From: a virus
Taxonomy: Duplodnaviria; Caudoviricetes
Length of the DNA stretch: 24,935 bases
Reading direction: 5' to 3' (one strand)
Virus record (IMG/VR): IMGVR_UViG_3300029183_000045
Location: 1-24,935 of that record
Both the position numbers and the translations under genes were made by a program. Shown here one piece after another: positions 2,743 to 24,727 of this stretch (the first letter of the stretch is position 1; each line of letters opens with the position of its first letter). The notes beneath the pieces were generated by a model that worked only from the letters and a program-made list of their open reading frames with translations, ran no database searches and was not told the origin of the DNA.

Positions 2743-3966
2743 TTATACAAGTGAATCAATTAACCCCATGACCTGAAGCGATCCTATTTTGTTATTGATA
2801 TCGCCGAGATGTTCGTTCGCTTCGTCCTGTTTGTTCTTCATGTCCTCGCGTTGCTTGGCCGCCTTCTCAGCGTCTGATTGTTCCTTGGTTCGGCCAAACA
2901 GAATGCGGAATTCCTCTTGAGTGTTCCGGCGAATTGCGGGCGAGTTTAACAGGCGGTTTATACCGGTTAGACCATCTTCGGCCCCACCGCCTTCTGCTTG
3001 ACGTGCCCTTTCATCGCCACGCTGTCTCCCTCGCAATTGTTGAAACTCCAATTCTGCTTTGTGCAGTTCGTCGAGGGCTTGATTGATTGAATTAACAGCC
3101 CCCTTCCCTTCGAATGCTTGCCGCAGAAGAGACGAAGTGAAAATTCCCAGCTTGTTCAATCGATTCAGCTTGTCCTGGTTTTGCGCCGCCTCGTCAGTTG
3201 AATCAGCAATCCCCTGCCACACCTTAGCCATTCTCTGTGTCGTCCACAGTGTTTGCTCTAAAACGGGAGCCATCTGAATTGTCAATTTATTAACGATGCC
3301 TTCCAGAATCAGGCTGGTACGCAACCACGCATCATTCGCCCGCTCGACACCCCTTGCGCCAATGTCGTCAATCTTCAAACCGAATTCGTCAAGGAACTGA
3401 GACGCCCGACGAATCCCCTCGGCACCACCATTGAAAAAGTTGATCAGGTCGGCACCTGTTCGGCCAAACAATGCCCGCAGAATGCCTGCCCGGCGTTCGT
3501 TCGACATACCATCTAGCCCCTCGGCCACTTTCGCCATCTTTTCTTCAAGTGGCAAACCAATGAACTCATCAGCGGAAACGCCTAGGGCTTCGAGTGCGTC
3601 TTTTGCTTCACTCGTTTTGAATGTCGTCTCGCCCAACCGAGCATTGAAGGTCTGTAAAGCCTTTCCAAGTTTCTCGCTGCTTACGCCCGTCAGCCTACCT
3701 TGCAATTCGAGAACTTGAAGCTCTTTGACCGTTGACCCAAGGTTTCCGGCAAGCTTCGCAAGCCGGTCAATATTGGAAAGCGAATTTTTGATACCACGAA
3801 ATAAGACAAACGCCGCACCGGTGGCACCCAGAAACGCTAACCCACCAGCGGCCGCTCGTGCAGCCGTGCCCAACGCCGTCACCCGCGCCTGACTTGCCGT
3901 CATCTTGGCATCGAAACTTCGAGTGCGTGCCCCCAGCAATACATCAAGATTGGCGATAATGGCCAT
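2743..3966 (-). CDS. Tail tape measure protein (407 aa)
   Basis: N-terminal MAIIANLDVLLGARTRSF pattern; helical Ala/Leu-rich body (IDRLAKLAGNLG, ALFGRTGADLI); follows the G/GT chaperones. Confidence 0.88.
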   Translation of the reverse strand: MAIIANLDVLLGARTRSFDAKMTASQARVTALGTAARAAAGGLAFLGATGAAFVLFRGIKNSLSNIDRLAKLAGNLGSTVKELQVLELQGRLTGVSSEKLGKALQTFNARLGETTFKTSEAKDALEALGVSADEFIGLPLEEKMAKVAEGLDGMSNERRAGILRALFGRTGADLINFFNGGAEGIRRASQFLDEFGLKIDDIGARGVERANDAWLRTSLILEGIVNKLTIQMAPVLEQTLWTTQRMAKVWQGIADSTDEAAQNQDKLNRLNKLGIFTSSLLRQAFEGKGAVNSINQALDELHKAELEFQQLRGRQRGDERARQAEGGGAEDGLTGINRLLNSPAIRRNTQEEFRILFGRTKEQSDAEKAAKQREDMKNKQDEANEHLGDINNKIGSLQVMGLIDSLV

Positions 3967-14734: not shown

Positions 14735-15214
14735 CTACGCTTTTCGTTTCCTGGATGGTGTTTTTGATTTATTGGCACTTCGATTGACCTGCATTCCGTT
14801 ACGGTCGCTCGCTGTCATGCCGAAACATGCGTGAAATTGCTTGATGATCTTTTCACAATCCCGGCGGTTTCTGACCGCAGGGTGCATCACGACAACCTTC
14901 GTTTTTGCATTGGTAAAATACCTGCCTTGCTTCTTTTCAACTCGTAAACAAGCCGCCCGTTCATCCCACGCATCCGCGTAAACTTCCAACGCCTCCAGAT
15001 CGGGCAACGTCAGCAATCCCATTTCCAAAAGAATCTGGCCTGTTTTTTTCCATCGCTTTTTCCCTTCGGCTCCCAAATGCCGTGGAGGGGGTGGCAGCTT
15101 GTCCAGAACCTCTCCTTTCGGTTCAAGGTCTGGATCTCCGTGCTTGTCTTTTCGATGGGTTCCGTCAAGTATCTTTAGCTTGGTCGGTGTCGGTGGTGGT
15201 CCTCGTTTTCCCAT
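14735..15214 (-). CDS. terS: Terminase small subunit, P27 family (~159 aa)
   Basis: MGKRGPPPTPTKLKILDG, PPPRHL, HPAV, FGMTASDR motifs; alternative GTG start at 15223. Confidence 0.92.
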   Translation of the reverse strand: MGKRGPPPTPTKLKILDGTHRKDKHGDPDLEPKGEVLDKLPPPPRHLGAEGKKRWKKTGQILLEMGLLTLPDLEALEVYADAWDERAACLRVEKKQGRYFTNAKTKVVVMHPAVRNRRDCEKIIKQFHACFGMTASDRNGMQVNRSANKSKTPSRKRKA

Positions 15215-15578
15215 TGGCTTCACTCAATTGCTGTTGGCGTTGCTCCCAGTCTTTTTTCCAGTCGTAGTTTCCTGATTCTTCTTTTGCTGTTTTTTTTCCG
15301 TGGCAGTCCCGGCACAAATTTTGATGGTTTGCCTTGTCCCAAAAAAGTTTATGGTTTGGAGTTGGTGGTCGTCGAATGTGGTCGATGTGGTTCGAATCAT
15401 GGGCCGTCAGCTTTCCCTTTCGTAAACAGTGAACGCACAATGGCCACTTCTGCTTGAAACGTTTCGTGTATCTGTTCCATCGCCGGGTGTATCCCTGTTG
15501 ATGCGTGTTAGTTTTGTTCGTCGTGCACCCACACTGTCCAACGATCCGACCGCAACGACATGGCTTAAGCCTGGGCAC
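15165..15578 (-). CDS. HNH endonuclease, terminase-associated (HK97 gp74-like, 137 aa)
   Basis: PLCVHC...IDHI...LFWDKANHQNLCRDCHGKKT; adjacent to terS. Confidence 0.92.
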   Translation of the reverse strand: MPRLKPCRCGRIVGQCGCTTNKTNTHQQGYTRRWNRYTKRFKQKWPLCVHCLRKGKLTAHDSNHIDHIRRPPTPNHKLFWDKANHQNLCRDCHGKKTAKEESGNYDWKKDWEQRQQQLSEANGKTRTTTDTDQAKDT

Positions 15579-15616: not shown

Positions 15617-16534
15617 CTAGACACCAGTGGCCTCCGGCAACGCCGTCACTTGATCGTAGGGACCGACGTTGAAAAGTCGCTTTTCATGCCGGGGCATCTT
15701 CTGGAATTCATTTACCGCAAAATCAATGGCCGCTTGCTGATCCTCGGGCGTCATGTTTTTCCACACTTCCGACTTGACGTTAGCCGTGACCGCGTGGTTT
15801 GGAATGGCTTGCGTCTTTGTGACGAATTCCTGAATGTCTTCTCTCGTTCGTGGCTTTCCTGTTCGAGGATCAATGAACGCCCACTCTGAATGAATCCAGC
15901 TTTCGTGATGGATGGCCGGCCATAATTCCATGTTCCAGTTGTCATGCTGTCTGGTTGAACCACCGTTGGCCATGTTCGCAATGACTGGAAACCGGCCTTT
16001 GATTCTCAACAAAAACTCTTTGAATCCTGCGTTGACTTCTCGGATTTTTTCGGGTTTCAATACATCGCCAACCTTTGACGTCGTTGTGCTTCCCTCGATA
16101 CGACAACTCATTTCCGAATGCAGTACCCGGCAACCATCCAGAGCGATTCCATGAACCCGATCGTTGCTCTGCCAGCCGTGAACAATTCCGACCGCTCGAT
16201 CGATCCACTTTTCGTTTGACCAATCGTAAAAATGGCGATCGCGATTTCCCGATTTGTTTTTCTTTACGATCGGCAACAACCAATCTCGGTTCATATGAGC
16301 GCAGAACCAGTTGGCTCCGAAATGGTTGTGGGTCGATGCGAAATGAATGTATACCGGAATGTTGTATTTCCGATAGAATTCGGCTACCGCGATACTTCCA
16401 ATCTGGGTATCGACCTGCCCACCATCAGCGAATTGTGGAAGCACCAGAAACCGTGGATTGATTTCGACGATCTTGTCGACATCATCCAAGGTGAAAAAAT
16501 TTCGTTTTCCTGTCCACAGGAACCGATTGATCAT
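15617..16534 (-). CDS. Putative glycoside-hydrolase-like TIM-barrel protein (~305 aa)
   Basis: ATG 16534 just after the upstream stop; YDWSNEKW...VHGIALDG...PVIANM pattern resembles GH-type barrels; family not certain. Confidence 0.45.
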   Translation of the reverse strand: MINRFLWTGKRNFFTLDDVDKIVEINPRFLVLPQFADGGQVDTQIGSIAVAEFYRKYNIPVYIHFASTHNHFGANWFCAHMNRDWLLPIVKKNKSGNRDRHFYDWSNEKWIDRAVGIVHGWQSNDRVHGIALDGCRVLHSEMSCRIEGSTTTSKVGDVLKPEKIREVNAGFKEFLLRIKGRFPVIANMANGGSTRQHDNWNMELWPAIHHESWIHSEWAFIDPRTGKPRTREDIQEFVTKTQAIPNHAVTANVKSEVWKNMTPEDQQAAIDFAVNEFQKMPRHEKRLFNVGPYDQVTALPEATGV

Positions 16535-16536
16535 AG

Positions 16537-16746
16537 TCAGCACTCCGTCTTGACAGACATGACATTGACCTTGGGTGGTGTTTCGATTGGTTCTGGCTTG
16601 CTTTCCTCCCACAGCAACGGCAAAAACAGGGCCAGCAACAATGCGACAATCACCGCCACGAAAAGCACGATGGCAAATCCCAAAGCGGTGGCGATGCAAG
16701 AAACAAGCCACACAACGACATTCAAGATTTTTTTCAGGATTTTCAT
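16537..16746 (-). CDS. Small membrane protein (69 aa)
   Basis: Basic N-terminus and ~35-residue hydrophobic stretch; ATGA overlap with the protease stop. Confidence 0.7.
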   Translation of the reverse strand: MKILKKILNVVVWLVSCIATALGFAIVLFVAVIVALLLALFLPLLWEESKPEPIETPPKVNVMSVKTEC

Positions 16747-17447
16747 TTGTCCAACTCCGCCATCAGGGTTTGAATCGGCCGAGTGTTACAACAACGACTG
16801 GGCCAAGTCATCTTGATTGATCTGCCATCACTCATGACAACATCGCCATCCCACCAGAACCAACCGCCAGAAACCACTCCAACGATTTTTCCTGATTCAC
16901 TGAATAGCGGCCCTCCTGAATCGCCCGGAATCAACGAGCAATCGGCGTAGATGATGTTCTCGTCTGTCGGTCGCGATGCTTTCGCTTTGAAGAATCGGAT
17001 TTCATCGAATCCGTTTGCACCGCCGAACCCGGCAATCTGAAATTGATCGCCGTGAACAATGGGATTCTCGGCAACGGTGAACGCTTCAATTCCTGGCGGA
17101 ACCCACACCCACACCAACGCGATGTCTGACTTTTCATCGAAGTGAACCACCTTTGATCGATGCGAGTTACTGCCGTCCTGATAGGTCACCTTGATCGCTC
17201 GGCGTCCCTGATCGCTGGAAACAGCGTGATAGGCGGTCAAAACATAGCCCTCGAATCCGCCGTTGGTTTCCTTGCCGGTGACTCGAACAACCGCCCCCGT
17301 TCCCATGCCACCGTCAAGCGTCACCATGACAATCGCTTCGTGGTTTTCTACTGGATCGACAAATTGCCACAGGCCGGAATCCTTTCCAACCTGGGCTTCA
17401 AGTTCCGTGGCAAAAATCAGAATCACAATGGCGAATGCAGTTTTCAT
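16743..17447 (-). CDS. Secreted trypsin-like (S1) serine protease (234 aa)
   Basis: Signal peptide; catalytic triad motifs LTAYH, SDIAL, GDSGGP. Confidence 0.92.
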   Translation of the reverse strand: MKTAFAIVILIFATELEAQVGKDSGLWQFVDPVENHEAIVMVTLDGGMGTGAVVRVTGKETNGGFEGYVLTAYHAVSSDQGRRAIKVTYQDGSNSHRSKVVHFDEKSDIALVWVWVPPGIEAFTVAENPIVHGDQFQIAGFGGANGFDEIRFFKAKASRPTDENIIYADCSLIPGDSGGPLFSESGKIVGVVSGGWFWWDGDVVMSDGRSIKMTWPSRCCNTRPIQTLMAELDK

Positions 17448-17869
17448 CCCGACAGGCTCCGTTTAGCCGATTCCAGATGGGTAAGTACTGCCGTCTTTTC
17501 GTCCGGTGCCAGTTCTTTACCGGCCTCGATCACGTACAGAAGCGAATCGGCAATCCGTTTTGTTTTCCGTTCGTTGTCAGACATGCGCTGATCAAGATTT
17601 ACAAAGCCCTCATTTTGTGTCGCGTTGAGTTTGTCAAGGATCTCGTTGCTTTTGTCTTGAGCGCGACTGATGTGGACAACCGCATCTGCGGTTTTCTCCC
17701 CACTTTCTGCCGTCCGGTCCATGAACTTTTCGTTCTTGTCAGCAAAACGATTCGCCAACTTCCATGCTCCCCACAGGAACAACAAAAAAAGAACGAACAC
17801 GCCACCGAGATTAAACGCCTTGTCCATCCACGACGGCAATGCTTCGCCTTGAGAAAGCAGGAACATCAT
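17444..17869 (-). CDS. Holin-like protein: single N-terminal TM plus coiled coil (141 aa)
   Basis: TM LGGVFVLFLLFLWGAW followed by a heptad-rich charged tail; architecture of BhlA-like holins. Confidence 0.5.
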   Translation of the reverse strand: MMFLLSQGEALPSWMDKAFNLGGVFVLFLLFLWGAWKLANRFADKNEKFMDRTAESGEKTADAVVHISRAQDKSNEILDKLNATQNEGFVNLDQRMSDNERKTKRIADSLLYVIEAGKELAPDEKTAVLTHLESAKRSLSG

Positions 17870-17873
17870 CCGG

Positions 17874-18770
17874 TCACCCTTCCCTTCGGTTCAGCCGCGA
17901 AATGTCGTCTGCTATTTGTTCAAGTGATTCATCGCCTGGGGCTGTTCTGGACAGATTTATTCTGCAACCAATCATTGCGTCATCTACTTTTACAGGAACA
18001 GCAGTCCAACTGACGGGAATCATTTCACCGTTTTTCGCCCAGACCACGTCGTTTGGAGAATGCGTGACCTCATCCCATGCCATCGAGTGAAACATATGGC
18101 ATTCAGACTCAGGATAGGCCGACCCATTTCGACGCTTGTAGTGAATTGCCTGGTGCATGTTTCGACCGATCAACTGTGATTCGTTGTCGTAACCCAAAAG
18201 TTCCACACAACGCCGATTGATCAATTCGCAACGTCCATCAGTGTTGACAAAGTAAAATGGATCCGCCGCATCAGACACGGACTGCAATAAAGCATCGTCA
18301 ACGCGAACCTGGTTTGGGTTCTTCCATCGTTTCGATTCGACAGCAACAGCCAGATAAAGAAAACCGATCACACTAATAGCCTGCAACGGTTTCCATACAT
18401 AACCTTCCAATCGGTATGCCGGCGCAACGAATTCCAGTGCCCAGATTCCATGATTGCCACCGCAAAACACGAAAAACAAAACCGCAAACAACCATGTCAG
18501 CGACCACAACCCTCGCTTGATGGTCCACCATGCAATAAAAAAGCCAACAAACAGATAACAGGTGTTGATGATCAGATCGAAAACGATATGAAACCAACCA
18601 AGCGACGGATTCTGGGACCAGCCTTGGCCGCATTCCCAGCGCGGTGGAAAGTCACCGGTGCCGAGCCACCATTCAGCAAAAGGGCGAGGGCTGCCGGACA
18701 AGCTGTGCAATGACACCATGTACACAGCAAGTCCGATCAGCAACAGGGGGAGGGTGATAAACCATTTCAC
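17874..18770 (-). CDS. Ethylene-receptor-like membrane sensor domain fused to PAS, no output domain (298 aa)
   Basis: DFPPRWECG, HIVFDLII..CY, FFVFCGGNH, PAYRLEG..K pattern of the ETR1/Slr1212-type binding domain; PAS with VNTDG, IN...LLGY, LIGRN, KNGEMIPV. Confidence 0.75.
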   Translation of the reverse strand: MKWFITLPLLLIGLAVYMVSLHSLSGSPRPFAEWWLGTGDFPPRWECGQGWSQNPSLGWFHIVFDLIINTCYLFVGFFIAWWTIKRGLWSLTWLFAVLFFVFCGGNHGIWALEFVAPAYRLEGYVWKPLQAISVIGFLYLAVAVESKRWKNPNQVRVDDALLQSVSDAADPFYFVNTDGRCELINRRCVELLGYDNESQLIGRNMHQAIHYKRRNGSAYPESECHMFHSMAWDEVTHSPNDVVWAKNGEMIPVSWTAVPVKVDDAMIGCRINLSRTAPGDESLEQIADDISRLNRREG

Positions 18771-18786
18771 GAGACGAAATAAGCTC

Positions 18787-19620
18787 CTATGGGCAGGCTG
18801 GGCAGTTCGCGTTCATCATCCGGCGATTGATGCCCCAATTGCGTGGCAGGAACCGAGCCGCGAATCTCCCGACGTTTCTGGCAGGTTCTCCTACTTGATA
18901 TTGAAGGGTGGGTGATTGCCTCGCCCATTGGCGAGTCACGCCATAACCACCGCCACCGGTTGACACGAATCGACCATTGGCGAAATAGCCAGAACCGATG
19001 GCGTCATGAATCTGGTCGTGCGGGTGACAATCCGAATTCGGATCGACAAACCGGAAATGGCCCGCTTGCCGGTGGTATTCCATGTGCGGTTCATTTGTCG
19101 GCATGGTCCATCTTCTCGCTCGATAGGTTCGTGTTCGAGTTACCGATCGCTGGAATGTCGGCAGGTCGCGATACGTATAAGATTGAACTCGATTGCCGCA
19201 ATTTGTCGCATTGCCCCAATTTCCGCAGTTCGAAGGCGCTTGTAGAACCAAAACCTGATTCCCGCAATTGGACCCCGGCTGTGACCAACCGCCTCCACCG
19301 CTCCAACTGGAAATGATCTGTTGCTGTTGCGGTGGACAAACCCCGGTTGGACAAACCCCGTCCGGGCAGGTGGGACAGACTTCCTGCGTTGCCTCAACGT
19401 GACCTAACGGGCGAAACACCTGCTTGAGCGTGTCGGAACCCTTGACCTCGACGGCATCCACCGATGGCATCGACCAGTCGAAATCCGCATCCCACTTAAC
19501 AACGTTGAATGTATTGGGCGAACTCCAATCAGCTTCGCTGGACCAGGTTGCCGGGCCGTGATTTGCCAGCGCCATTGCAGGCAACGACATCACAGCAATT
19601 CCGAAAATCACTTTATTCAT
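18787..19620 (-). CDS. Secreted Cys/His-rich low-complexity protein (277 aa)
   Basis: Signal peptide; CPTCPDGVCPTGVCP, three NCGN repeats, His cluster, terminal CPACP. Confidence 0.7.
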   Translation of the reverse strand: MNKVIFGIAVMSLPAMALANHGPATWSSEADWSSPNTFNVVKWDADFDWSMPSVDAVEVKGSDTLKQVFRPLGHVEATQEVCPTCPDGVCPTGVCPPQQQQIISSWSGGGGWSQPGSNCGNQVLVLQAPSNCGNWGNATNCGNRVQSYTYRDLPTFQRSVTRTRTYRARRWTMPTNEPHMEYHRQAGHFRFVDPNSDCHPHDQIHDAIGSGYFANGRFVSTGGGGYGVTRQWARQSPTLQYQVGEPARNVGRFAARFLPRNWGINRRMMNANCPACP

Positions 19621-20386
19621 TTCTCAATCCTTTCACGATTGCGTTGAGAATTTCTGCGTATTCCGACGAGTTGGATGGCGGATTTTCTGCAATGTATTCG
19701 TCGATCGCCATGCGACGAAATTGATTCCAGTTGTTTCTGGATGGTGTTTTCTGCCCGAATTCAGTGAGCGAAGTTTCGACAATCTTTTTGGATGCTTCCT
19801 GTGTCGTTGCAGCGCGAACAGAGTCAATCACCCGCTCGTAAGCGTCTGCCAGCCCCTTGGCAAATGAAGGTTCCATTTCGATCAGCGGTAAATCATGACC
19901 CTTGAATCGAAACGCCTTGATTCCATCAATCAACTTTGAGTGATCGGTAACGGGTTCGTCTGGCTCGTCCGGTTGATCTGGTTCGTCTGGCGGTGGCTGT
20001 GGTCCCAATGTGCCAATCGTGGCCTTGAGGGTTTCAGTCCACCAACCGTTTTCGGTGATCGCCAGAATCTCGATCGACCACCTTGAACCAGGAGGACCAA
20101 CCAGCAGAAACTCGCCATCGGAAACTTTGTGAAGCGGGACCGGGGGCCAGGGGTTTTTGTCGGCGTAGGCTCGAACCAGTGGATTCGGGGCGCTAGTTCG
20201 AACTACCACCGCTTCGCGTTCTGTCTGAGACAAAACCTTTTCGTCAAGCGAGGTATCGTTGAAAGTGATTGCCTCGATCTTCTTGACCGAAACCTTGACC
20301 GATTCAATCGTTGATTGCGTTTGCTGAGCGAAACTGCACTGAAACAAAAACAACCATGCCAGCCAGAATGAAAAAATGGTTCTCAT
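19613..20386 (-). CDS. Secreted two-domain protein with PDEP linker (~257 aa)
   Basis: ATG 20386 overlaps the protease TGA; signal peptide MRTIFSFWLAWLFLFQCSFA; PQPPPDEPDQPDEPDEP linker. Confidence 0.75.
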   Translation of the reverse strand: MRTIFSFWLAWLFLFQCSFAQQTQSTIESVKVSVKKIEAITFNDTSLDEKVLSQTEREAVVVRTSAPNPLVRAYADKNPWPPVPLHKVSDGEFLLVGPPGSRWSIEILAITENGWWTETLKATIGTLGPQPPPDEPDQPDEPDEPVTDHSKLIDGIKAFRFKGHDLPLIEMEPSFAKGLADAYERVIDSVRAATTQEASKKIVETSLTEFGQKTPSRNNWNQFRRMAIDEYIAENPPSNSSEYAEILNAIVKGLRNE

Positions 20387-21351
20387 GCCCACACCGGTTC
20401 CTTGTCTCGAAGCCAAGCGAAGATGTTTTGAATCTGAGCGATTCCGTAACCGTAAACCGGATCAAAACCGGGCTTGCCTGCGTCCAACATGAATCCCTGC
20501 TCGGCGAAGAACGTTTTCCATTCCTCGTAGCCCTTGAGTTCAGGCAGCATCAGTTGACGGCGTTTCTGGATAATCAGGCAAAGCAAGCCAACATGGTCAG
20601 GAGTCGCCATCGACGTTCCATCCATCGAGATAGAACCTGTCTTGCTGCGAGAATCAGGGGCGATAATGTTTTGGCCAGGTGCAGCCGTGTCAATCGTTGG
20701 CCCTGTCGATGAAAACCCTGTTGCCTTCAAATCCTGCTTGATGGCTCCCACAGTTTGGGAATCCTTCAGGTTTCCCGGTGGCCCAATCGTGTTTTGACCT
20801 TCCCCAGCGTTGCCTGCCGCCACAACGTCAAGAGACAATCCATTGGCGTAGGCTTCGTCCTGTGCGCGTTGATCCTCGGGCCGTTCGTTTCCCGGTGCGG
20901 ACCCAAGTGACCGGCTCAGTAGATCGCAACCATCTTTTGCAGCCTGGACCGCAGCGGCATTGATCCAGGAAGTTCGCCCTGACCCACGATCGCCCAGAAC
21001 CTTGTAAATCGAAATCGTCGCGCCGGGTGCAAGGCCGAAACCATCGAGACCAGCGATGATCCCCCAGCAATGCGTTCCATGCCGGTTGCCATCATCGGCC
21101 TTGTTCGATTCGCCGGTGTAGTCACGGCGGTTGACCACTTTTGACTGGTCAAGGTATTTATGCTCAAGCGTTCCACCGGTATCACAAACGCCAACGTGGA
21201 CGCCTGTGCCATCAATGCCTTCATTTCGAACGGCCTCAAGTTCATCCTTGATCCATGCCCGGTGCCACAAAAACGGGACGGTCATTGAGAATGCGTAGTC
21301 TTCGTTCACTTCATGATCACCGGGAATGCCGATGACTCGATCATCGCTCAT
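20383..21351 (-). CDS. Subtilisin-like S8 serine protease (322 aa)
   Basis: VGVCDTG (Asp), NRHGTH (His), AAGN (oxyanion Asn), GTSMATP (Ser); no signal peptide. Confidence 0.95.
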   Translation of the reverse strand: MSDDRVIGIPGDHEVNEDYAFSMTVPFLWHRAWIKDELEAVRNEGIDGTGVHVGVCDTGGTLEHKYLDQSKVVNRRDYTGESNKADDGNRHGTHCWGIIAGLDGFGLAPGATISIYKVLGDRGSGRTSWINAAAVQAAKDGCDLLSRSLGSAPGNERPEDQRAQDEAYANGLSLDVVAAGNAGEGQNTIGPPGNLKDSQTVGAIKQDLKATGFSSTGPTIDTAAPGQNIIAPDSRSKTGSISMDGTSMATPDHVGLLCLIIQKRRQLMLPELKGYEEWKTFFAEQGFMLDAGKPGFDPVYGYGIAQIQNIFAWLRDKEPVWA

Positions 21352-22144
21352 GACGATGCTCCCCCATGAATGATGGGAACATAATGTTGTTGAAACGGCT
21401 GATTGTTGTCGTCCGCCGGCGGTACGGTGTCGAAATCGATCGGTGCGAGTGCGACTGGTTTACGTTTAGCCGTTTAAGATCGCTGAGCTTCACAAACGCT
21501 GTACCATCCGAATTGTGAATATGCGGCAATGACCCAACGTCTGAAACGTTGACCTTGGCAAATCCCATTGGGATCTTCGAAACATCAACCGCATAGGAAT
21601 CCCGAGTACGCCATTCGTAAGGGAAACCCTCAAGGGGAACCCGCATCGGTGATTGAAGTTCAGTATCGGTATCGATCGGCTGTGGCAATCGAGCCGCGAT
21701 CGACACGCCCGGATCATCCGATGCAATTACGCCAATGAATAAATCGATGATCTTTTTCAGAAACTCCACGAATCCGTCGGGATTCGCAATGATGGCGTCA
21801 ATGATCTTCTCGAAAATTGGAAAGCGCGGCTCGCCATCTTCCAGCGCAAATGCGACCATTTCATCATCGTGGACGTGCTGGGCTTTCATCCCGTAGTACG
21901 CTGCATCAACCAGGTCCGGATCAGCCAACACAGTTCGAATGTGCTGCTTCTGCTCATCCGTTAATCCGAATCTCGGGCGCAACATCTTCCGCATTTGCAA
22001 TCGGAAAAGCCGCTTGGCAAACGCATCATCAGCATTCTCGCGGAATCCCTGTCCTACCACCTCCTGCGCCGTCACGTTCGTAACCGCAACAACCACCGGC
22101 AAGCAAAAGCTCGCCATCAACAACAATGACAAAATTCGTTTCAT
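21341..22144 (-). CDS. Secreted hypothetical protein (267 aa)
   Basis: Signal peptide MKRILSLLLMASFCLPVVVA; amphipathic helix FVEFLKKIIDLFIG; overlaps the S8 start. Confidence 0.75.
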   Translation of the reverse strand: MKRILSLLLMASFCLPVVVAVTNVTAQEVVGQGFRENADDAFAKRLFRLQMRKMLRPRFGLTDEQKQHIRTVLADPDLVDAAYYGMKAQHVHDDEMVAFALEDGEPRFPIFEKIIDAIIANPDGFVEFLKKIIDLFIGVIASDDPGVSIAARLPQPIDTDTELQSPMRVPLEGFPYEWRTRDSYAVDVSKIPMGFAKVNVSDVGSLPHIHNSDGTAFVKLSDLKRLNVNQSHSHRSISTPYRRRTTTISRFNNIMFPSFMGEHRHER

Positions 22145-22158
22145 GGTTTCTCTCTCAG

Positions 22159-22371
22159 TTAAAGCACTTTCCGATCGCTGCGACCAGCAGCATGATTGTT
22201 ACGACTACCAGCGCCAGAATCACGGCCTTCTAGTATTCGCTCAAGTCGTTTTTTTTCATCTCTCAGTTTTCGCTCGATCTCTCCATCCACCTTGCCCAAC
22301 CCAAGCCAGATACCGATTTGCAGGATTCGCCTCCTAATTGCGGCGGCGCTCGACCTCGATCCGATATTCAA
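22159..22371 (-). CDS. Possible small coiled-coil protein (~70 aa)
   Basis: Within ORF 22159..22407; candidate TTG start at 22371 with AAGG upstream; EIERKLRDEKKRLERIL looks coding. Confidence 0.35.
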   Translation of the reverse strand: MNIGSRSSAAAIRRRILQIGIWLGLGKVDGEIERKLRDEKKRLERILEGRDSGAGSRNNHAAGRSDRKVL

Positions 22372-22591
22372 CGTGAGCCTTCTTGACCAAAACTCGCGAA
22401 CGGACATAGGTGACGATCGAGGTAACGCCTGTGATCACCGCGAATACACCCTCGACAATCCTGGTTGTCATCTCGACCAGTTCGCTTTGGGCTTCTGGCG
22501 TGATATGTCCCGTCACAACGACCACCGCCAGAATCGAAGCGAACAACGAAATCCAGAACTCTGAAGTGTGAAATCCTTTTTTGACGTTCAC
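22334..22591 (-). CDS. Holin-like two-TM protein (85 aa)
   Basis: KKGFHTSEFW N-terminal motif, two hydrophobic segments, YVRSR..VK and basic C-terminus. Confidence 0.65.
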   Translation of the reverse strand: MNVKKGFHTSEFWISLFASILAVVVVTGHITPEAQSELVEMTTRIVEGVFAVITGVTSIVTYVRSRVLVKKAHVEYRIEVERRRN

Positions 22592-23469
22592 GCTGCGGCC
22601 CTCCGTTGTGCGAATCCTTCAATCCATTCGTTCATTCGAACGTTCCAGAATTCCTCATCCGTCGTCAGCGTCATTCCCGGTGGCAACGGTCGCGGATACT
22701 CGCCATCACCCAACCAGACCAGGGTGACGTTTTCGTAAATCCCGGTCATCGGAAAATCCATCTGAGACTTTCCACGTGCCGACCATTGATCAGTTCTCAA
22801 GACACAATTCCGCATCTCGATAAAACCGCCAACCTCCGACCGCTTGAAGAATTGCCCGCAGGATTTGCCATCAGGCTTGTAGTCCGTTTCTGATCGATTG
22901 TCAGGCTGAGCAATCAGGCGAATCAGGCAATCGTCAATTTTGATATGAGGTGGTGTAAAGTTCGCCGGGTTCGCGTTGGACCCGTACTGGTAACTCAGAA
23001 ACGTGTGCCCTTCGAAAAGACAGTTGCGAATTTGACCGGACAAAAGCTGATCGTTCTCAATGCAGTCGTCGCGAATTCCGGTCATAACGGTGTTTGCAAC
23101 TTCCCATTCGCCGCTGTGCCTGGGCGAGAAACCATCCTCCACGTTGTCAATAAAACACCCGTCAACGACCTTTCGCCCGGACATTTCCATTCGAATGCCG
23201 TCGCCTTCGTAGTCGTTTTTCATCTTCCGCCAGTCAAAGTCTCGAGACTGGACGCCGATGATGTTGGCGTTTTTGACAGTGACCGGATGAGGCGACCATT
23301 TGATCGAGAACGGGTAGCGGTCTTCCTTGGCCTGAGTTTCATTAGCCAGAAACGTGGTCATTCCACAATCAAACACCGTTGGCTTCTTTAATGATTTTTG
23401 TTCAAACTGATCACGATAAACGCCGAACGGAGTTGTGATGATGTCAATGCCAACGTTTGGGTCGATCAT
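22588..23469 (-). CDS. Right-handed beta-helix (pectin-lyase-like) protein (~293 aa)
   Basis: Repeating IDNVEDGF / GIRDDCIEND / IRNCLFEG / IDDCLI / MRNCVL rungs; TAATG-coupled start. Confidence 0.65.
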   Translation of the reverse strand: MIDPNVGIDIITTPFGVYRDQFEQKSLKKPTVFDCGMTTFLANETQAKEDRYPFSIKWSPHPVTVKNANIIGVQSRDFDWRKMKNDYEGDGIRMEMSGRKVVDGCFIDNVEDGFSPRHSGEWEVANTVMTGIRDDCIENDQLLSGQIRNCLFEGHTFLSYQYGSNANPANFTPPHIKIDDCLIRLIAQPDNRSETDYKPDGKSCGQFFKRSEVGGFIEMRNCVLRTDQWSARGKSQMDFPMTGIYENVTLVWLGDGEYPRPLPPGMTLTTDEEFWNVRMNEWIEGFAQRRAAA

Positions 23470-24170
23470 TACGCCCCCCATTTCGCACTGGTTCCCGAGT
23501 AAACGCCGGCCTTATTTGCCAGGGTTCCCGAGTACACCAGCACTTGGCAAAGCGCACCGTTCATCCCGTTGGCTCCGTCGTGCCTTGCTCCGATCGTGAT
23601 TCCGTTCAATGTCTGCGATCCAGAGTTGGCGCTTATAACGGCAACTTCATCAATCTCCAAAAACGAAAACCCAGCGTTATAAAACGAAATCGCCGTGTGG
23701 AGATTAGTATCCGATGTTCCACCGGTTTGAGTTGTGCCTGCAAACTGAAACCATTGAGGGGTGGCGTTTGTTCCAAACGATTGACGGGCTCCACTGGTGT
23801 TCGAGTCGATAATATTTTGAGTGCTCGCCACCGAATCTAATTGGAAAACCGCTACAATTACCGAAGGCTGGGCTTGGGTGATCGAACCAAACAATTGGTC
23901 AGACCCATCAAAATCCAGAACATTCAACCCATTAACGGTTCGAGTTCCCGTGGAAGGAAGGTCACCAGCTCCTGTATTCGACACGCCAACGCTGCCTACC
24001 TTATCAGTCCAGGTCATGACGCTTGATGCGACCGAGATGGTGCTGGTATCTGAAGCATCCCAATTAGCCACAATCGTTCCAAAGCTTGACCAGTCAGGTT
24101 CAGAGCTCGCAACAATCCCTTGAGCGATCGGAGAGCTGATGCCGGATGCGATTGATTGAGCGATTGTCAC
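23469..24170 (-). CDS. ConA/LamG-like lectin-fold virion-type protein (233 aa)
   Basis: WDASD, WTDK, NGLNVLDFDGSD, IGAR...NGALCQVLVYSGTL, KWG motifs. Confidence 0.7.
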   Translation of the reverse strand: MTIAQSIASGISSPIAQGIVASSEPDWSSFGTIVANWDASDTSTISVASSVMTWTDKVGSVGVSNTGAGDLPSTGTRTVNGLNVLDFDGSDQLFGSITQAQPSVIVAVFQLDSVASTQNIIDSNTSGARQSFGTNATPQWFQFAGTTQTGGTSDTNLHTAISFYNAGFSFLEIDEVAVISANSGSQTLNGITIGARHDGANGMNGALCQVLVYSGTLANKAGVYSGTSAKWGA

Positions 24171-24442
24171 TGGCGAATTCCCACTACCACGGTTGGCGAA
24201 GTGGACCCGCTCAGATTGACCCGAACTTTACAAGGATGGTCGATCGTGAAGCGTTTGGCATTGTCGGAAGTAAAAGACATGTCTGGAACGTCCTTGGCAG
24301 TCGATCCGTTATCGTCTGTAAACTGAAGCTTGGCAGTTCCGCTTCCAAAGGTTCCGTCAGCGTCAAAAATTCCCGATCCTCCATGCCACTCCAGCCAGTC
24401 TGTGTTTCCATCCGCAGAAAGTGTCGTTTCCTGGGTTGCCAT
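24167..24442 (-). CDS. Small beta-sandwich protein (91 aa), first gene of the operon
   Basis: GGAGG RBS at 24447-24451, ATG 24442; GTFGSGTAKLQ...VRVNLSG; GTGA overlap with the next gene. Confidence 0.75.
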   Translation of the reverse strand: MATQETTLSADGNTDWLEWHGGSGIFDADGTFGSGTAKLQFTDDNGSTAKDVPDMSFTSDNAKRFTIDHPCKVRVNLSGSTSPTVVVGIRQ

Positions 24443-24457
24443 GTTTCCTCCATGCAC

Positions 24458-24511
24458 AAAAAAAAGCCGCCACCGGATCACCCTCTGCATAAGGGAAATC
24501 TGGTGGCGGCT
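24458..24511 (-). terminator. Intrinsic terminator-like hairpin in the operon leader
   Basis: AGCCGCCACC(A)GAT / ATC(C)GGTGGCGGCT stem with a CCCT/AGGG extension, followed by a U8 tract. Confidence 0.8.
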
Positions 24512-24535: not shown

Positions 24536-24727
24536 CTAAGTTATGTTGTGAATTGTATTAGAATCCTCTGGAATGTCAAAATGCTTTTCCTTTACAATCG
24601 CCCACTGAGGATTGCAAATAACGACAACATCTGCTGCATCTTTAGATTCGAGGCTTATCACAATTGGCCCCAATCGCCAAAACTCGCCTTTCTTCAGCCT
24701 GATTTTTTTTTCTCTTGCATCCTGCAT
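24536..24727 (-). CDS. Small hypothetical protein, weakly CsrA-like (~63 aa)
   Basis: KIRLKKGEFWRLGPIVISLE...VVVICNPQWAIVKE echoes the CsrA strand pattern; start uncertain (24727 or 24748). Confidence 0.35.
   Translation of the reverse strand: MQDAREKKIRLKKGEFWRLGPIVISLESKDAADVVVICNPQWAIVKEKHFDIPEDSNTIHNIT
24552..24579 (-). promoter_or_regulatory. sigma70-like promoter TTGACA-N16-TACAAT
   Basis: Perfect -35 (24574-24579) and 5/6 -10 (24552-24557), about 110 nt upstream of the first gene. Confidence 0.75.

Follow-up and report, generated by a model that had tools for sequence, protein, structure and literature searches.

A block of 13 genes adjoining the packaging genes of a tailed phage is composite, with a core made of an amphipathic protein, an S8 subtilisin that lacks a signal peptide and a secreted PKD-like partner, usually together with small membrane proteins. 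The module is proposed to act in lysis or egress from a protein-rich envelope and its predicted substrates are envelope proteins, not peptidoglycan, a reading to which we assign a probability of about 0.45. The gene order, the intact catalytic sites, the recurrence of the core and the exchange of one protease type for another are shown; the steps of the proposed pathway are inferred. Lysis of walled bacteria by tailed phages is generally considered to require a peptidoglycan hydrolase. A phylum-specific cassette of exchangeable proteases would, if true, represent a different way out of the cell, and no paper describing the module was found in the open-access literature searched.

Gene order and transcription signals

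The stretch of DNA analyzed (the window) is a 24,935-bp fragment, which is all that the source record contains; an endolysin elsewhere in the phage is therefore possible. All 13 genes are located on the minus strand and run in the same direction, spanning 24442 to 15617. Neighboring genes overlap by 1–11 nt at eight of the 12 junctions and are separated by 2–16 nt at three and by 189 nt at one, in agreement with the first-pass annotation, which had described about 13 co-oriented, joined genes behind a promoter and before the HNH-terminase genes. The HNH endonuclease (15165..15578, minus strand, assigned by family match) starts 38 nt past the end of the block and marks the boundary to an HK97-like packaging module, in which HNH is followed by TerS, TerL, portal, S49 and capsid. 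At the other end, a sigma-70-like, putatively late promoter (24552..24579, minus strand) reads TTGACA-16-TACAAT, with 11 of 12 matches. Between this promoter and the first gene lies an element that had been missed: a GC-rich hairpin followed by U8 (24458..24511, minus strand), which resembles an intrinsic terminator and has a fold z of −4.95, with none of 200 shuffles as stable. By analogy with lambda pR'/tR', the promoter and leader hairpin would point to antitermination.

The lambda cassette runs in the order pR'-tR'-S-R-Rz/Rz1 (holin, endolysin, spanin). The block shares with lambdoid and HK97 lysis cassettes its position between a promoter with leader terminator and the terminase, as well as holin-like membrane genes that adjoin a signal-less hydrolase. 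Its earlier placement in the lysis-cassette slot is thus borne out by a late-operon position, with the promoter and leader hairpin on one side and HNH-TerS joined to it on the other. In contrast to those cassettes, the module has no recognizable muralytic enzyme or spanin pair and instead contains general proteases and a conserved secreted partner.

Lysogenic-conversion cargo, with its own promoter and expressed in the prophage state, had been offered as the alternative. The strength of the sigma-70-like promoter fits this idea, and secreted enzymes and sensors are typical types of lysogenic cargo. However, the terminator-like hairpin directly follows the promoter, no terminator was seen on the coding strand between the block and HNH-TerS, and the GC content of the block (0.514) is similar to that of the structural genes (0.519). 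Rather than forming a separate transcription unit of atypical composition, as a moron would, the block is continuous with the packaging genes. In addition, S8 lies within a co-oriented run in all nine genomes inspected. With the module among co-oriented late genes wherever this was checked, the cargo explanation is highly improbable.

The conserved core and the surrounding genes

The S8 subtilisin (20383..21351; PF00082, E 1e-37) has no signal peptide, and its short N-terminal extension carries an IPGD motif. Residues D57, H91 and S247 of the S8A triad and the oxyanion residue N181 are intact and invariant across 57 S8 sequences. None of the 57 homologues has a hydrophobic N-terminus, 55 have an N-terminal x-P-x-x motif (mostly IPPD, LPPD or IPGD), and in most the catalytic Asp is found ~50–60 residues from the start. 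These properties resemble those of intracellular subtilisins (MEROPS S8A), which, according to PMC6220982, share the lack of a signal peptide and pro-domain, the short N-terminal extension with a hydrophobic-Pro motif and the intact triad. In contrast to the LIPY/F motif ([LVI][IFLV]P[YFH]) given there, the window S8 has GIPG and its family IPPD, LPPD or IPGD, and the phage enzyme is coupled to secreted and membrane proteins. The signal-less S8 may never leave the cytoplasm, which counts against a role in lysis. Large phages of Bacillus and Moorella also encode subtilisins (PHROG 3677), which are distant, at 31–33% identity.

The secreted partner (19613..20386) consists of a signal peptide, a PKD/Ig-like domain, a Pro linker and a helical domain; its fold is tentatively suggested by weak profile matches to PKD domains in the PDB (best E 1e-4). 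The partner family was found, and aligned, at 54 loci, whereas word-based searches gave almost no homologues and the Atlas none. The third core component, a 267-aa protein (21341..22144), has a signal-like N-terminus, a strongly amphipathic helix at about residues 110–140 and the top hydrophobic moment among the window proteins tested. Its comparison with the S8 neighbor in one relative gave a z of 6.8, and z was at least 3.5 for 5 of the 15 tested, which suggests that it is the counterpart of the small amphipathic proteins adjoining S8 in relatives. Signal peptides throughout the block were called by eye and hydropathy.

The partner adjoins S8 in 46 of 49 viral loci of this S8 subfamily, the other three having less than 1 kb of downstream DNA. 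When the loci are clustered at 70% identity, 17 of 18 clusters show this arrangement. An amphipathic small ORF is present beside S8 in 13 of the 18 clusters, compared to 3 of 28 background windows, and a small TM ORF in 15 of 18, compared to 11 of 28. The portals of the carriers are HK97-, lambda-, Mu- or SU10-like, indicating different head types, and no other family is common to more than 8 of the 15 genomes compared; the module therefore moves as a unit. Lysis cassettes likewise move as units. The presence of S8 in 13 of 13 complete genomes is circular, as these genomes were picked by S8. In a complete relative with a TerL 64% identical to that of the window, the late operon opens with a secreted S1 protease with a C-terminal amphipathic helix and a small TM gene. 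Among relatives with upstream DNA, those closest in TerL have neither S8 nor partner, which argues against the lysis reading. An apparent S8-partner fusion (locus L008) was discounted, since its junction still contains part of a signal peptide and could stem from a frameshift or an assembly error. Scans of genomes and metagenomes with the S8 alignment were also set aside; the matches listed were mostly unrelated subtilisins caught by generic motifs.

The remaining genes are more variable. The annotation had treated all 13 as one system, for which no support was obtained: only the three-gene core and analogous membrane genes recur. A module of protease, secreted partner and membrane proteins is found in other genomes. 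The first three genes are accessory: a 91-aa protein without a family match (24167..24442), possibly virion-associated; a 233-aa Ser/Thr/Gly-rich protein (23469..24170), lectin- or tail-accessory-like by eye and without a meaningful match; and a 293-aa protein without a signal peptide (22588..23469), whose beta-helix assignment comes from inspection by eye, with no family match behind it. Downstream of the partner are a secreted, probably disordered 277-aa Cys/Pro/Gly-rich protein of CxxGxC type (18787..19620), whose analogues occur near S8 in 5 of 18 clusters compared to 0 of 28 background windows, and an accessory four-TM sensor (17874..18770) that has ETR1_N (PF25487, 28.6 bits; cut-off 27) and PAS domains and no kinase domain, consistent with the membrane sensor noted previously. 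The adjacent 141-aa protein (17444..17869) belongs to no family and combines a single TM segment with a coiled-coil-like region, a holin- or i-spanin-like topology. It is followed by the secreted, trypsin-like S1 protease (16743..17447; PF13365, E 1e-16), whose triad (TAYH 71, DIAL 108, GDSGG 175) is intact and which has homologues at two other loci (L013, L015); both proteases named in the annotation are confirmed. A 69-aa two-TM protein (16537..16746) precedes the last gene, which encodes a 305-aa glycosidase-like protein without a signal peptide (15617..16534, true start 16534). Atlas features (0.91–0.93) and structure (TM 0.76–0.77 to GHL15 and 0.67 to GH114) support the earlier glycoside hydrolase assignment as a TIM-barrel enzyme, but no Pfam match was obtained. 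No homologue of the glycosidase, beta-helix-like or sensor genes was present among the relatives fetched, and the glycosidase and sensor are likely extras specific to this phage.

Endolysin, holin and spanin searches

Searches of the window with Pfam, PHROGs and NCBIfam gave no match above cut-off to families of peptidoglycan hydrolases, holins or spanins, consistent with the earlier failure to recognize an endolysin or spanin pair in the block; for the hydrolase, sensitivity was low (one of nine control phages). No lipoprotein/spanin pair or u-spanin was seen in the window, whose sole lipobox-like pattern is LVSC in the 69-aa membrane protein. Of the two proteins called holin-like, the 85-aa two-TM protein (22334..22591) is the holin candidate; the topology stands, but its PF04531 match (E 0.038) is below cut-off. 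With the ORF and Pfam pipeline, a peptidoglycan hydrolase was recovered in 0 of 14 complete relatives and in 1 of 9 control phages (Fisher p 0.39), and absence from the relatives consequently proves little. As the annotation proposed, no endolysin is recognizable, here in these relatives, but its replacement is unproven. Single-family searches yielded PF01510 in 1 of 50 (a distant S8 phage), PF00959, PF13539 and PF05838 in 0 of 50 and PF08291 in 0 of 25; these negatives were set aside as weak because six-frame searches of the controls were also nearly empty (1, 0, 0 and 0 of 23). Pattern searches with known endolysin motifs yielded no convincing match in module genomes and few in controls.

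The main rival to the lysis or egress reading is that the module is accessory to an ordinary holin-endolysin pathway with a too divergent endolysin, the proteases merely clearing a protein layer, holdfast or biofilm matrix. In this phage, the divergent endolysin would possibly be the TIM-barrel glycosidase, which lacks a signal peptide, follows a TM gene, directly precedes HNH and occupies the place of an M23 enzyme in one control genome. Pfam also misses most endolysins of uncultured phages, as the control result shows, and planctomycetes do possess peptidoglycan according to PMC12673574. In contrast, none of the uncharacterized families is widespread among the 15 genomes compared, and five candidate cell-wall-enzyme ORFs from the controls had no such match in module genomes, only matches to a non-lysin. 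Furthermore, the glycosidase is GHL15/GH114-like, with no GH25 among the structure matches listed and no homologue in relatives. GH114 enzymes cut galactosamine exopolysaccharides and are not known to cut peptidoglycan. This explanation is considered somewhat unlikely.

Probable Pirellulales hosts and a proposed route out of the cell

The partner occurs in 14 of 401 Pirellulales genomes, beside S8 in 2 of the 14 loci and beside a papain-like protease in 9, which indicates that the protease is exchangeable; four 90–190-kb phages carry both. The host of this record is probably a planctomycete of the Pirellulales, in line with the planctomycete envelopes invoked earlier. A search of 401 Planctomycetota genomes for the window TerL gave no match at E 1e-60, and searches of plasmids and cultured phages returned distant S8 and TerL matches only, with no named host. 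Matches to the S8 profile in 12 of 301 Planctomycetota genomes were mostly ordinary chromosomal subtilisins and were set aside. PMC12673574 describes planctomycete walls as protein-dominated, with Cys-rich YTV proteins, and the question of a protein wall versus peptidoglycan as long disputed.

In the proposed lysis or egress pathway, antitermination at the leader hairpin would set late expression. The S8 enzyme would fold in the cytoplasm, where its short N-terminal peptide would block activity in the manner of intracellular subtilisins, and be let out by the holin-like membrane proteins, while the partner, S1 protease and Cys-rich protein would be exported by Sec. Cleavage of the protein-rich wall would fall to the proteases, the partner serving as a targeting or scaffold piece, and the amphipathic protein would disturb the outer membrane, standing in for spanins. 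A functional analogy is phiKT gp28, a small amphipathic, outer-membrane-disrupting protein of spanin-less lysis; according to bioRxiv 10.1101/515445, this cationic protein acts alongside a normal endolysin, whereas the amphipathic proteins of the module are larger and often acidic. A more far-reaching and decidedly tentative version is that Pirellulales tailed phages lyse without any peptidoglycan hydrolase: an interchangeable general protease (S8, papain-like C1, S1 or matrixin), holin-released or secreted and guided by the PKD-helical partner, would digest a load-bearing protein wall, and the amphipathic protein would open the outer membrane. The protease substrate would then show the load-bearing layer of the planctomycete envelope.

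A late, non-lytic role is quite unlikely: host-surface remodeling (superinfection exclusion or lysis delay), chronic release assisted by vesicles, or the breakdown of host or phage proteins in the cytoplasm. It would suit an S8 built like an intracellular subtilisin and the ETR1/PAS sensor within the block, and PMC10945688 reports one planctomycete phage released without lysis. Chromosomal copies also exist outside evident prophages. One Pirellulales genome has four related pairs of S8 and amphipathic genes, without phage genes in the stretches examined and some beside glycosyltransferase-like ORFs, and some partner and papain-like pairs sit among host genes; the module can therefore have non-lytic uses. 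Against such a role in these phages, tailed phages with diverse head types, some of them 180–190 kb in size, retain the module among their late genes, and no other lysis candidate recurs. Secretion of the partner and S1 is a poor fit to capsid maturation, and an S49 head protease is already encoded in the window. The partner family provides a usable marker for these phages. The module is also present in prophage-like regions of two closed Pirellulales genomes (G837 and G478), which makes the lysis or egress reading testable; the G478 partner carries a fused three-TM N-terminus.

A protease core recurring across viral loci

The window carries a real, recurrent and undescribed module, with a core of a small amphipathic protein, an S8 subtilisin (S8; 20383–21351, minus strand) and a secreted PKD-like protein (partner; 19613–20386, minus strand). 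A scan with an S8 alignment covered 41 of the 64 parts of the viral collection and kept at least 80 loci; of 80 S8 loci, 49 score at least 320 bits, 30 score lower and the last one breaks off within S8. Iterating a profile built on the window partner places its family in 54 loci, among them 46 of the 49 high-scoring ones, where it always lies on the S8 strand and starts just upstream of S8 or no more than ~1 kb from its end. The three remaining high-scoring loci each have <1 kb of downstream DNA. When loci are grouped at 70% identity, the partner accompanies S8 in 17 of 18 clusters. Family members are built from a signal peptide, a domain of PKD/Ig-like type (best PDB profile match, E 1e-4), a proline linker and a helical domain. 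Next to S8, 13/18 clusters encode a small protein whose helix is strongly amphipathic, as do 3/28 background windows; small transmembrane (TM) ORFs occur in 15/18 versus 11/28. The window protein at 21341–22144 is a weak homologue of this amphipathic type.

The window S8 lacks a signal peptide, and none of its 57 close homologues has a hydrophobic N-terminus; 55 of them share a short N-terminal x-P-x-x motif, mostly IPPD, LPPD or IPGD. In intracellular subtilisins, a short pro-peptide blocks the active site, according to an excerpt of PMC6220982. The window S8 has the same architecture but departs from the strict LIPY/F pattern. Separately, four related S8 genes occur in a Pirellulales genome (G001; loci L261, L262, L263 and L264); the two that were read begin with a YRLPPY-type sequence. 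An amphipathic small protein precedes at least one, several adjoin glycosyltransferase-like ORFs, and no phage genes appear in the stretches read. In three more distant S8 phages (L055, L066, L071), a secreted protein resembling di-haem cytochrome c peroxidase directly follows S8 (CCP_MauG, E 5e-50 for L071; L055 and L066 by eye).

Layout and content of the block

The window record, a 24,935-bp virus fragment, encodes, on its minus strand, an HK97-like head and a short tail module. Upstream of HNH (15165–15578, minus strand)-terS-terL lie 13 co-oriented genes (24442 to 15617, minus strand), with 8 of 12 internal junctions overlapping, 3 gaps of 2–16 nt and 1 of 189 nt. A near-consensus promoter (24579–24552) precedes the first gene, and between the two a long, GC-rich hairpin (z −4.95) runs into a stretch of eight U, arranged like the late promoter and leader terminator of lambda. 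Because the junctions are tight, this leader is present and the GC content (0.514) equals that of the structural genes (0.519), the block forms the front of the late operon, in agreement with the single-promoter run described by the first-pass annotation. The 189-nt gap, which follows the holin-like gene, contains a hydrophobic micro-ORF of 22 codons (22155–22223, minus strand) that has a site resembling a ribosome-binding site; an 82-aa ORF (22159–22407) overlaps the same gap. At 407 aa, the tape-measure protein (2743–3966, minus strand) is small enough to imply a very short tail; its counterpart in G003, a related complete genome, has 538 aa.

Four assignments made from sequence inspection hold. 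The S8 triad is intact; the S1 protease (16743–17447, minus strand) starts with a signal-like segment and keeps its motifs intact; the membrane sensor (17874–18770, minus strand) is ETR1_N, over cut-off, plus PAS, lacking a kinase; and the GH-like last gene (15617–16534, minus strand) encodes a GHL15/GH114-type TIM-barrel glycosidase (two Atlas searches, counted as one source). The holin-like (85 aa, two TM; 22334–22591), beta-helix-like (22588–23469) and first two genes (24167–24442, 23469–24170; all minus strand) are present, but no family match passes cut-off, and the holin and beta-helix identities are putative. The sensor is a phage-encoded ethylene-receptor-like membrane domain that keeps D/Y and CxxxH residues similar to those at the copper site in ethylene receptors. 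A lone receiver-like domain occurs in the L058 cassette (E 0.004).

S1 homologues occur in 2 loci among the relatives fetched, where the other window genes outside the core have none. The notion that all 13 genes form one system is therefore not upheld: the block comprises a three-gene core and analogous membrane genes, which recur, with phage-specific extras.

Carriers and the Pirellulales link

Whole genomes were fetched for 13 carriers, chosen on the module, that are rated complete or have terminal repeats (773 ORFs, 571 clusters). Their portals are of HK97, lambda, Mu and SU10 type, and no family other than the module is common to more than 8 of 15 genomes. The module lies ahead of terminase, among head/tail genes or past the tail, and in the 9 genomes viewed for gene order it is part of a co-oriented run. 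Partner, papain-like protease and S8 are all present in four large phages, and a matrixin-like gene is added at some loci. G003, with a TerL 64% identical to that of the window, is without S8 and partner; at the head of its late operon are a small TM gene and a gene for a secreted S1 that terminates in an amphipathic helix. What stays constant across these S8, papain-like, matrixin-like and S1 versions is a protease, whatever its class, accompanied by secreted and membrane partners. A polyvalent protein of 1,695 aa with ADP-ribosyltransferase domains was seen in G412 (L296:12012–17099).

Among cellular genomes, the partner search covered the order Pirellulales and matched 14 of 401 genomes. 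S8 adjoins the partner in 2 of these loci, one of them a prophage-like region bordered by host genes on a 6.7-Mb contig; in 9, the neighbour is a papain-like protease carrying Q/C/H/N motifs; in the other 3, one probably a false match, no protease was identified. In G604, partner and papain-like protease precede a terS-terL-portal set related to that of the window. In a prophage of the closed genome G478 (L345:14631–15659), a three-TM holin-like N-terminus is fused to the partner domain, and a signal-bearing papain-like protease follows. A search of 401 Planctomycetota genomes for the window TerL gave no match; the relatives described here point to a probable Pirellulales host.

Endolysin test and proposed role

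The first-pass annotation proposed that the module replaces a classical endolysin cassette. Pfam scans of 14 complete genomes (46 from G003, 427 and 135 ORFs or cluster representatives) found no peptidoglycan hydrolase. A composition filter first removed 41 representatives, a second gene call, based on codons, recovered ORFs that the first had missed, and 12 known module/head homologues and 4 ORFs >2,300 aa were left out. In the same pipeline, nine unrelated HK97-like records (195 + 128 proteins; rated 86–100% complete, some probably trimmed) yielded one hydrolase, an M23 enzyme before HNH in G865, and none contained S8, partner or S1. The absence is thus observed but does not discriminate (p 0.39), and even allowing for probable trimming of some controls, a negative outcome in this test does not demonstrate the lack of an endolysin. 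One control, G869, has a lysozyme-like endolysin candidate by eye beside a holin-like gene (L481:3209–3613; no Pfam match).

The remaining argument for a missing endolysin is that no unknown family recurs across carriers. It counts against the main rival, in which the module is an accessory beside an unrecognised endolysin; the window glycosidase is a candidate for that enzyme, and this reading is judged rather unlikely. A role in lysis or egress is plausible and is given a probability of roughly 0.45. Antitermination would lead to late expression; a self-inhibited cytoplasmic S8 would be released by the holin-like proteins; partner, S1 and a Cys-rich protein would be exported by Sec; the proteases would digest the planctomycete wall, reported as protein-rich in an excerpt of PMC12673574; and the amphipathic protein may disrupt the outer membrane, by analogy with phiKT gp28 (excerpt of bioRxiv 10.1101/515445). 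Against this, planctomycetes possess peptidoglycan (same excerpt of PMC12673574), similar protease-containing gene pairs are found among host genes, and one planctomycete phage is reported to have non-lytic release (excerpt of PMC10945688).

A search of the open-access literature found no description of the module. New here are the recognition of the partner family as the shared core, the exchange of S8 and papain-like proteases next to it, the connection to Pirellulales and the endolysin-test control. The module also repeatedly includes thioredoxin-like CxxC domains, either standing alone or joined to S1 or partner (L013, L014, L015, L052, L058, L059, L167), and Erv1/Alr-type proteins occur in G415, G418 and G422; if the wall is rich in Cys, the handling of disulphides could be important.
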